Of a stretch of 64,000 nt of DNA, positions 11,336 through 11,954 are shown piece by piece. The stretch lies in IMG/VR virus record IMGVR_UViG_3300023035_000005, positions 92,708-156,707 of that record; one strand, given 5' to 3'. The first letter of the stretch is position 1. Each line of letters begins with the position of its first letter. Source of the DNA: a virus. Both the position numbers and the translations under genes were made by a program. Below the pieces are notes generated by a model. That model ran no database searches and was not told the origin of the DNA. It saw only the letters and a list, made by a program, of their open reading frames with translations.

Positions 11336-11954
11336 CTAACATACATATGTAGCACATATATAACAACATCTCCCGCGTATAACTCAAATCTCTCTACCAG
11401 CTTCCAGGCAAGTAGGACATCTTTTTCCTGGTAGTGTACCTGAATAATATATCTCACTATCTGGATTATTAAGTAACTCACTGCCTGGATTATTAAGTAA
11501 CTCACTACCTAAATTATTAAGTAACTCAATATCTAAATTATTAAGTAACTCGGTACCTAAACCACCAATAATAAATGTTATTATTATTATTAATAATAAT
11601 AATAATAATAAAATAAAAATAAATTTAAGATTAGATTGTAAAGGTAAACTTACAAAAGCGTGAGGCTTAGGTGGGCTACTTAACGCTCATTCTAAGGAAG
11701 GGTAACTTCTATTTAATAAGGCTTGTAATGTATCAGTATAATATTGAGGAGTCATTCAAGGATATCTACTTGCAGATTTTCCTTCTACTAATTGTGCATA
11801 TACAATGTATAAGAATAATCAAGCAGCTATAACACTAACTATAGATCCAAAACTACTTATCAAATTTCATCCCGCAAAAGCGTCAGGATAGTCACTAATT
11901 CTTCTAGGCATTCCTTGTAAACCTAAGAAATGTTGAGGGAAGAAAGTAAGATTA
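11336..11954 (-). CDS. cox1: cox1 terminal exon copy A with a 99-aa extension
   Basis: [11 protein letters not shown]...SLPLQ, then open to TAG at 11336. Confidence 0.88.

Follow-up and report, generated by a model that had tools for sequence, protein, structure and literature searches.

In the DNA analysed here, comparison with related sequences indicates that the last exon of cox1 runs on into a conserved in-frame module, tail A, and that this is no chance read-through. Tail A is very probably a real coding module of a protein family defined by a small four-cysteine (Cys4) domain. We also consider it probable, with less assurance, that the module was grafted in frame on cox1 and consists of an anchor helix, a fast-evolving linker and the Cys4 domain.

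The window (the whole 64-kb stretch of DNA that was analysed) belongs to a fungal mitochondrial genome that is large and rich in introns and uses genetic code 4; the contig from which it comes is 216,117 bp long. The minus strand carries almost all of the genes, and in many of the ORFs a GIY-YIG or LAGLIDADG endonuclease is joined to exons of cox1 and nad1 (Pfam). At 4350-8337, nad1 exons are fused in frame with LAGLIDADG and GIY-YIG/NUMOD ORFs, and a tRNA-Leu(taa) gene (8959-9033) stands between nad1 and the cox1 region. The named Cox1 sequences nearest to that of the window are from Xylariales (Annulohypoxylon, Apiospora, Dematophora); judged by its sequence, the host is a Xylariaceae-type fungus. 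The end of cox1 begins with two features:

11955-12306, minus strand: group I intron core A, of the last cox1 intron (Rfam RF00028, 60.5 bits, match at 11944-12306)
11633-11954, minus strand: cox1 terminal exon, copy A, canonical part, beginning NLTFFPQHF (translation; Pfam COX1)

Core A has its terminal G at 11955, and its guide, GUUAGCCUCU, lies just 5′ of P3. The guide can pair over 9 bp with the sequence AGGGGU|UAA around the 5′ splice site (13535/13534); the pair at the site itself is U.G. The acceptor was read from the sequence, and its use joins the upstream exon to give GV|NLTFFPQHF. The sole GIY-YIG ORF nearby (13069-13680) is that of the last cox1 intron, upstream of the tail, and is fused to the upstream exon; since the guide lies 3′ of this ORF, beside the core, the endonuclease ORF occupies the P1 loop. 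Pfam COX1 (PF00115) covers the start of exon A, which is 93-95% identical to Cox1 ends of Xylariales and reaches the canonical end, ..PPKPHAF.SLP.QS, at a Ser codon (11635-11633). Exon A then reads on, past the canonical end of Cox1, through codons 11632-11339 without a stop:

11336-11632, minus strand: tail A, 98 codons followed by TAG at 11338-11336 (translation, code 4)
11555-11623, minus strand: predicted 13th transmembrane helix, 23 hydrophobic residues (hydropathy, AlphaFold2)
11456-11551, minus strand: linker of four 8-residue repeats (ELLNNxxx), encoded by a 24-nt tandem array (Tandem Repeats Finder)
11339-11434, minus strand: Cys4 mini-domain (LPGKRCPTC-x14-CYIC-ATYVC), predicted to be zinc-ribbon-like (profile search, AlphaFold2)

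The residues NLK stand between the ..PLQS end and the hydrophobic run, which reaches a peak Kyte-Doolittle hydropathy of 3.7 (19-residue window). Much of this anatomy had been described in an original prediction made from the letters of the sequence, and the peptide that it quoted is reproduced exactly by code-4 translation of 11336-11935 on the minus strand, where we place the feature by way of correction. The hydrophobic run had been said to be encoded by a (TTA)n(ATA)n microsatellite: its coding strand is indeed partly (TTA)7(ATA)4, and trinucleotide arrays were found at 11578-11622 (Tandem Repeats Finder). The same program confirmed the frame-preserving 24-nt repeats said to encode four 8-residue units, as an array at 11453-11561 with 4.5 copies, 88% matches and zero indels. 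The Cys-rich CxxC..CxxC motif is present as CPTC-x14-CYIC, with the spacing of the knuckles now corrected to 14 residues. The proposed span of the tail, 11336-11635, had the right end and frame, but position 11635 takes in the Ser codon, and the tail proper is 11632-11336. A GC hairpin right after the tail A stop (−20 kcal/mol), considered as a candidate signal for the mRNA end, was not significant relative to shuffled sequences (z = −1.3).

Homologous tails are present in relatives of the window sequence. The Cox1 of Dematophora necatrix (P0025, 635 aa) has the same helix-repeats-Cys4 tail after ..PLQ, 55% identical to tail A (E=2e-29). A word-index search with the tail alone detected, at near lengths, only P0122 (99% identical) and P0123; for longer proteins it returned nothing, which is weak evidence given that the known D. 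necatrix protein was missed too. P0123 sits on an ENA metagenome contig (L001), where its reading requires TGA to encode Trp. More homologous tails are those of L004 (tail end), L003, P0134/P0131 and P0127, several of them from metagenomic Xylariaceae-like contigs. Common to the tails of the relatives are the motif PGKRCPxC...G...W[VI]..GR.C.IC.TY[VI], a helix of nearly equal length and 3.5-4.5 octad repeats that have diverged but occupy the same place. The diverged helices and octads of the relatives suggest that the microsatellite and near-identical 24-nt units of the window arose by local homogenisation of an older helix and linker.

We compared selection on the parts of the tail using dN/dS (Nei-Gojobori), with only 25-31 codons in each segment. 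Between the window and L001, the ratio was 0.10 for the cox1 exon, 0.17 for the helix, ~1.9 for the linker and 0.30 for the Cys domain (dS 0.66). For the Cys domain, other intact mitochondrial pairs gave 0.24-0.43, and pairs with L003 gave 0.5-0.9, indicating relaxed constraint. The Trp codon of the Cys domain is TGA in both the window and the L001 copy. L003 (positions 2-562) has two in-frame stops in the helix region, after ..PLQSNI, and an intact Cys4 domain that follows an internal ATG and is given by the gene caller as a separate 60-aa ORF (P0125); by its sequence, this tail would either have become a pseudogene recently or have switched to being expressed on its own. In P0254, the Cys domain is broken. 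We conclude from these two cases that the tail is dispensable in some lineages. Most relatives show neither a stop after ..LQS nor a loss of the cysteines, the two signs that the original prediction had named as counting against it, and even L003, with its stops, keeps the cysteines.

TAA and TAG account for 6.7% of the codons in the window, with all frames counted. A run of 98 open codons would be expected by chance with p ~0.001, or ~0.02 if internally repeated codons are discounted. On their own, these p values make chance unlikely but still possible; it is the conservation of the tail in relatives that settles the matter against chance.

To characterise the Cys-rich end, a profile of the linker and domain of the tail was searched against 1.84 billion representatives, and 183 proteins matched at E≤1e-3. 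Around 140 of the 150 matches listed contain a ~33-residue module, PG[KRVT]RCPxC-x14-CxxCGT, and among the matches listed the domain mostly ends 4-6 residues from the C-terminus; in the window copy, 5 residues follow the last Cys. In an alignment of 131 sequences, C, C, W, G, C and C are invariant and P, G, P, G, V and T near-invariant, so that the family layout is one of two CxxC knuckles 14 residues apart with an invariant W and G between them. The window copy keeps all 12 of these positions, the four cysteines included, and the window region scores 58.7 bits against the domain HMM (E=3e-17), which found no further copies within the 64-kb window. Family members match no Pfam family above the cut-off. 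In the ESM Atlas, one member falls in an unnamed Ascomycota cluster, and in the literature we found no paper with the motif strings of the family. We conclude that, as far as sequence comparison can define it, the Cys4 domain is an undescribed Pezizomycotina family, members of which are labelled ‘hypothetical protein’.

We built an AlphaFold2 model of the tail with the family alignment. The model has a helix at residues 5-29 (pLDDT 92-97), which together with the hydropathy peak is consistent with the transmembrane helix of the original prediction, a linker of low confidence, and a Cys-rich end folded as a compact small domain with short strands (pLDDT 96-97). Matches to known zinc ribbons were weak. 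The window tail matched none of the Pfam zinc-ribbon families at E≤10, and relatives gave sub-threshold Pfam matches (RUBY_RBDX, 17.7 bits against a cut-off of 26.5; DZR_2, ~13 bits). The family profile matched no PDB sequence below E=0.33, its best match being ribosomal L37Ae, and COX5B/Cox4 chains were absent among its PDB matches at E≤10. Foldseek of the model against the PDB gave no match below E=3; its weak matches were to small zinc fingers, such as Nup153 ZnF3, with an rmsd of 1.8 Å over 31 columns (E=8). With no significant match to Pfam, PDB sequences or PDB folds, it is the motif, the model and these weak matches that speak for a ‘zinc ribbon’. Of the zinc-ribbon-like domain originally proposed, the four cysteines are present and the model gives a compact small domain; ‘zinc-ribbon-like’ is a reasonable description of it rather than an assignment to a family.

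The Cys4 family has members in both nuclear and mitochondrial genomes. The nuclear members are intron-containing genes for small proteins in Xylariales, Pleosporales and Microascales, on contigs of ~20 kb to several Mb from Nemania, Xylaria, Daldinia, Biscogniauxia, Hypoxylon, Annulohypoxylon, Microdochium, Lomentospora, Stagonospora and Pyrenophora; examples annotated as ‘hypothetical protein’ are KAI1156279.1 (Nemania diffusa), KAI0975785.1 (Xylaria arbuscula) and KAA8616769.1 (Pyrenophora tritici-repentis). In the two nuclear genes inspected, from Nemania (L005:5001-5213) and Pyrenophora (L009:3001-3222), a short spliceosomal intron lies at the same position, directly before xPGxRCP, and the Cys4 domain thus corresponds to one exon. 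We considered whether the nuclear copies might be mitochondrial insertions (NUMTs) and rejected this origin: they have spliceosomal introns, use TGG for Trp, have a GC content of 51-55% and lack flanking mitochondrial similarity. The introns, the TGG codons and the GC content indicate that the Nemania and Pyrenophora copies are real nuclear genes.

The nuclear and mitochondrial members are related at the level of the peptide. The tail A subtype signature is present in nuclear proteins of Xylariales, although blastn of the Nemania nuclear gene gave no match to tail A at the nucleotide level. The nuclear gene of Pyrenophora encodes the same 32 residues as a mitochondrial ORF (P0178), yet the two differ at 25 of 96 nucleotides, which argues for selection on the peptide in both compartments. 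P0178 encodes 76 aa, an N-terminal helix and the domain, with TGA as Trp, and overlaps the end of cob. The overall pattern implies that the module has moved between the genomes at least twice, each time in a particular lineage. The mitochondrial forms are either free-standing ORFs of this ‘helix + domain’ type or fusions to respiratory proteins. As identified by Pfam or by reading, these comprise C-terminal fusions to cytochrome b (P0177, P0224), Cox1 fusions with other linkers (P0083, P0220) and Cox2 fusions, namely an exon fragment (P0160) and a domain upstream of Cox2 (P0211). Judging from these sequences, the domain would face the matrix in P0220, where it follows Cox1, and in the fusions to cytochrome b. 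The variation in predicted compartment among the fusions argues against a single compartment-specific role.

The 3′ part of the last cox1 intron and the terminal exon are present twice in the window. The second copy and the DNA that separates it from tail A comprise:

10800-11335, no strand: spacer between the exon copies, with GC-rich palindromic repeats of CCTACGAAGTCAGG type
10495-10798, minus strand: group I intron core B (Rfam, 51.2 bits), with its own guide, GUUAGCCCCUA
9176-10505, minus strand: cox1 terminal exon, copy B (10505-10184), and tail B, with ORF P0002 at 9176-10462

Over 370 nt, copy A (12005-11636) matches copy B (10556-10187) at 99.7% identity; this stretch consists of the last 62 nt of the core and the exon, and further upstream the intron cores are 84% identical. 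The identity stops exactly after the CAA (Gln) codon of ..PLQ. The next two codons are TCT-AAT in the window tail A and L001, and AGT-AAA in copy B and in L002, a relative free of tail A in which an intronless cox1 ends with PLQSKIFLR and a stop. The spacer at 10800-11335 has no ORF of ≥60 aa except an 83-aa frame (11254-11505) that mostly overlaps tail A. Its CCTACGAAGTCAGG-type repeats match other places in the window and may mark the recombination sites of the duplication. Repeats of CCTACGAAGTCAGG and CTCCTACGAAGG type recur at ~12550-13075, inside the upstream intron.

Tail B, of 335 residues, is more widely conserved than tail A. Homologues with 33-85% identity are either fused to cox1 or free-standing just 3′ of it in many fungi, and the tail B/ORF-B family has no Pfam match. 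Its members have a hydrophobic N-terminal part, a G/S-rich linker and a C-terminal motif, NAYRNS..KELN.... Tail B or ORF B spans 9176-10186 in the window, 6578-7474 in L002, 619-1743 in L003 and 213-1454 in L004. In distant fungi, it is fused to full cox1 (P0009, P0010, P0016, P0017), and on the compact mitogenome contig L002 it is free-standing, 95 nt after the intronless cox1. In both L004 and L003, cox1 is followed by tail A, then by what remains of the cox1 end, and then by ORF B. This remnant (78 residues in L004 and ~7 in L003) is truncated at its 5′ end and lacks a splice acceptor, leaving copy A as the only complete cox1 end in both. The simplest history is that the module joined cox1 upstream of an older cox1-tail B end, with duplication of the 3′ region, and that the downstream duplicate decays in relatives and was kept or re-converted in the window genome. 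Among metagenomic and genomic ORFs of the last cox1 exon (P0008-P0121), dozens of unrelated in-frame tails of ~75-455 residues follow ..PLQS; several families recur, among them FFISPILWASIEE.., DFFGTVSVEQ.., SFFPTEIAPN.. and another Cys-rich tail (P0057). The 3′ end of cox1 seems to be a general hot spot in fungi for ORFs fused in frame.

Cox1 is among the most conserved of proteins and has 12 helices, with its C-terminus normally on the matrix side. In the explanation that we favour, recombination would have joined the module right after the Gln codon of ..PLQ, duplicating the cox1 3′ region and pushing the older end of the gene, which carries tail B, downstream. The last group I intron would be spliced to acceptor A, and translation of tail A together with Cox1, as read from the sequence, would yield a Cox1 ending in a 13th membrane helix, preceded by Lys and followed by an acidic linker. 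Starting from the matrix, such a helix would carry the linker and the Cys4 domain to the intermembrane-space face, where the four cysteines would bind a metal, most likely zinc. The matrix-side attachment predicted for other fusions makes this placement on the opposite side of the membrane, also part of the original prediction, an expectation specific to the architecture of tail A. The tail may be stably present in mature Cox1, although we lean slightly against this. We infer a possible role in the biogenesis of respiratory complexes. The sole hint of function is the repeated attachment of the domain to subunits of complexes III and IV, a hint weakened by the varied sidedness and the decayed copies, and we regard a respiratory-chain function of the Cys4 domain as unlikely. 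Still more doubtful is a scheme in which the domain is an accessory factor of complexes III and IV encoded in either genome and, in Xylariaceae, attached to Cox1 by the 13th helix so as to put a metal-binding site at the intermembrane-space face, with the twin intron cores and their common 5′ splice site allowing a choice between tail A and the unrelated tail B.

Alternatively, the tail might be a selfish or neutral passenger, a mobile or transferred ORF that is expressed in mitochondria only by virtue of the expressed gene to which it is joined or directly behind which it lies. It would be translated with Cox1, or cleaved from it, without a role in cytochrome oxidase, and conservation would reflect the module's own function or propagation. 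We consider this account rather unlikely. It fits the occurrence of one domain on different host genes, at N- and C-termini and on different predicted sides of the membrane, as well as the existence of a free-standing ORF after cob and the decaying copies in L003 and P0254. The DNA of the Cys domain has a higher GC content (40%) than the sequence around it (window, 30%), and the module came with a duplication of the cox1 3′ end, a pattern reported beside fungal mitochondrial insertions (PMC6279837). Mobility is harder to reconcile with the content of the tail: tail A has no Pfam domain, and no endonuclease (LAGLIDADG, GIY-YIG, HNH) or other mobility domain was found in or beside it. The strong amino-acid conservation between nuclear and mitochondrial members and the conserved position of the nuclear intron point to a cellular function, and the helix adjoining Cox1 is likewise constrained.

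The main Cox1 product might also exclude tail A, if core B and exon B were used or if the mRNA were processed at ..PLQS; exon A and its tail would then be removed within a long intron or left untranslated. The guides of both cores can pair with the single 5′ splice site at 13535/13534, that of core B over 10 bp and that of core A over 9 bp, so splicing to exon B with skipping of tail A is possible in the window genome. Exon B matches exon A at 99.7% identity, and of the two cox1 extensions tail B has the wider conservation. Nevertheless, we judge this outcome improbable. Core A adjoins the intron's 5′ part, comes first in transcription and has the higher Rfam score (60.5 against 51.2 bits); copy B lacks an acceptor and has a truncated exon in L003 and L004; at least four taxa keep tail A in the frame of exon A; and it is the form with tail A that is annotated in the D. 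necatrix record. Finally, an open frame produced by chance, through frame-neutral expansion of the microsatellite and 24-nt units after loss of a stop, is extremely improbable: about half of the tail codons do lie in repeated DNA that is stop-free once one unit is open, but several taxa have homologous tails in diverged, non-microsatellite sequence, and the Cys4 domain has 183 relatives, nuclear genes included.

If the favoured reading of a module grafted on cox1 is true, the catalytic core of complex IV would have a covalently attached extra helix and a Cys-ligated module. For annotation, the long ‘Cox1’ in records of the D. necatrix type is real sequence and no product of a missed stop. The Cys4 family, which has no Pfam entry, keeps its peptide identity in both genomes across saturated synonymous divergence, and this two-genome pattern implies gene movement and strong selection on an unstudied function. 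Its repeated attachment to Cox1, Cox2 and cytochrome b hints either at a respiratory-chain function or at the ends of genes serving as platforms for ORF expression.

The closest known counterpart is the D. necatrix Cox1, in which NIKF, a helix and diverged octads are followed by APGKRCPTC-x14-CPIC-GTYVS. Its tail differs in having 89 residues, compared with 98 in the window, and a helix and linker that are not microsatellite-like. In a term search of the D. necatrix mitogenome paper, the word ‘extension’ did not occur and cox1 was mentioned once, in an unrelated context (PMC11404375). The small nuclear proteins of Pezizomycotina have the same ~33-residue Cys4 domain at the C-terminus; unlike tail A, their genes are GC-rich with an intron before the domain, and the proteins have variable N-termini of 15-60 residues and no membrane helix. 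Classical zinc ribbons (L37Ae, RNA polymerase subunit P/Rpo12, RanBP2-type Nup153/ZRANB2) resemble the Cys4 domain in their two CxxC knuckles, which in them flank a β-hairpin, and in their similar size, but none of the Pfam zinc-ribbon families has its signature of PG.RCP, W-V and CGT, and matches to them are not significant. Complex IV has a small Cys-ligated zinc domain in Cox4 of yeast and COX5B of mammals; those subunits differ from tail A in being nuclear-encoded and on the matrix side, and none of their PDB chains matches the family profile at E≤10.

As for the arrangement of the locus, C-terminal duplication with an inserted ORF is also a feature of the Allomyces atp6 hybrid gene and of mobile ORFs in Glomeromycota. 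Of the two marks of 3′-end replacement of the homing-endonuclease type, the window has the displaced duplicate (exon B), and an endonuclease ORF within the insert is absent. In cob and atp6 of Endoconidiophora resinifera, partial C-terminal duplications lie next to inserted ORFs (PMC6279837). The window locus shares with these a functional gene end, an inserted ORF and a displaced copy of the gene 3′ end. It differs from them in that the stretch between the copies is free of homing-endonuclease ORFs, the insert continues the reading frame of the gene, and the displaced copy has an intron core of its own and is still intact.
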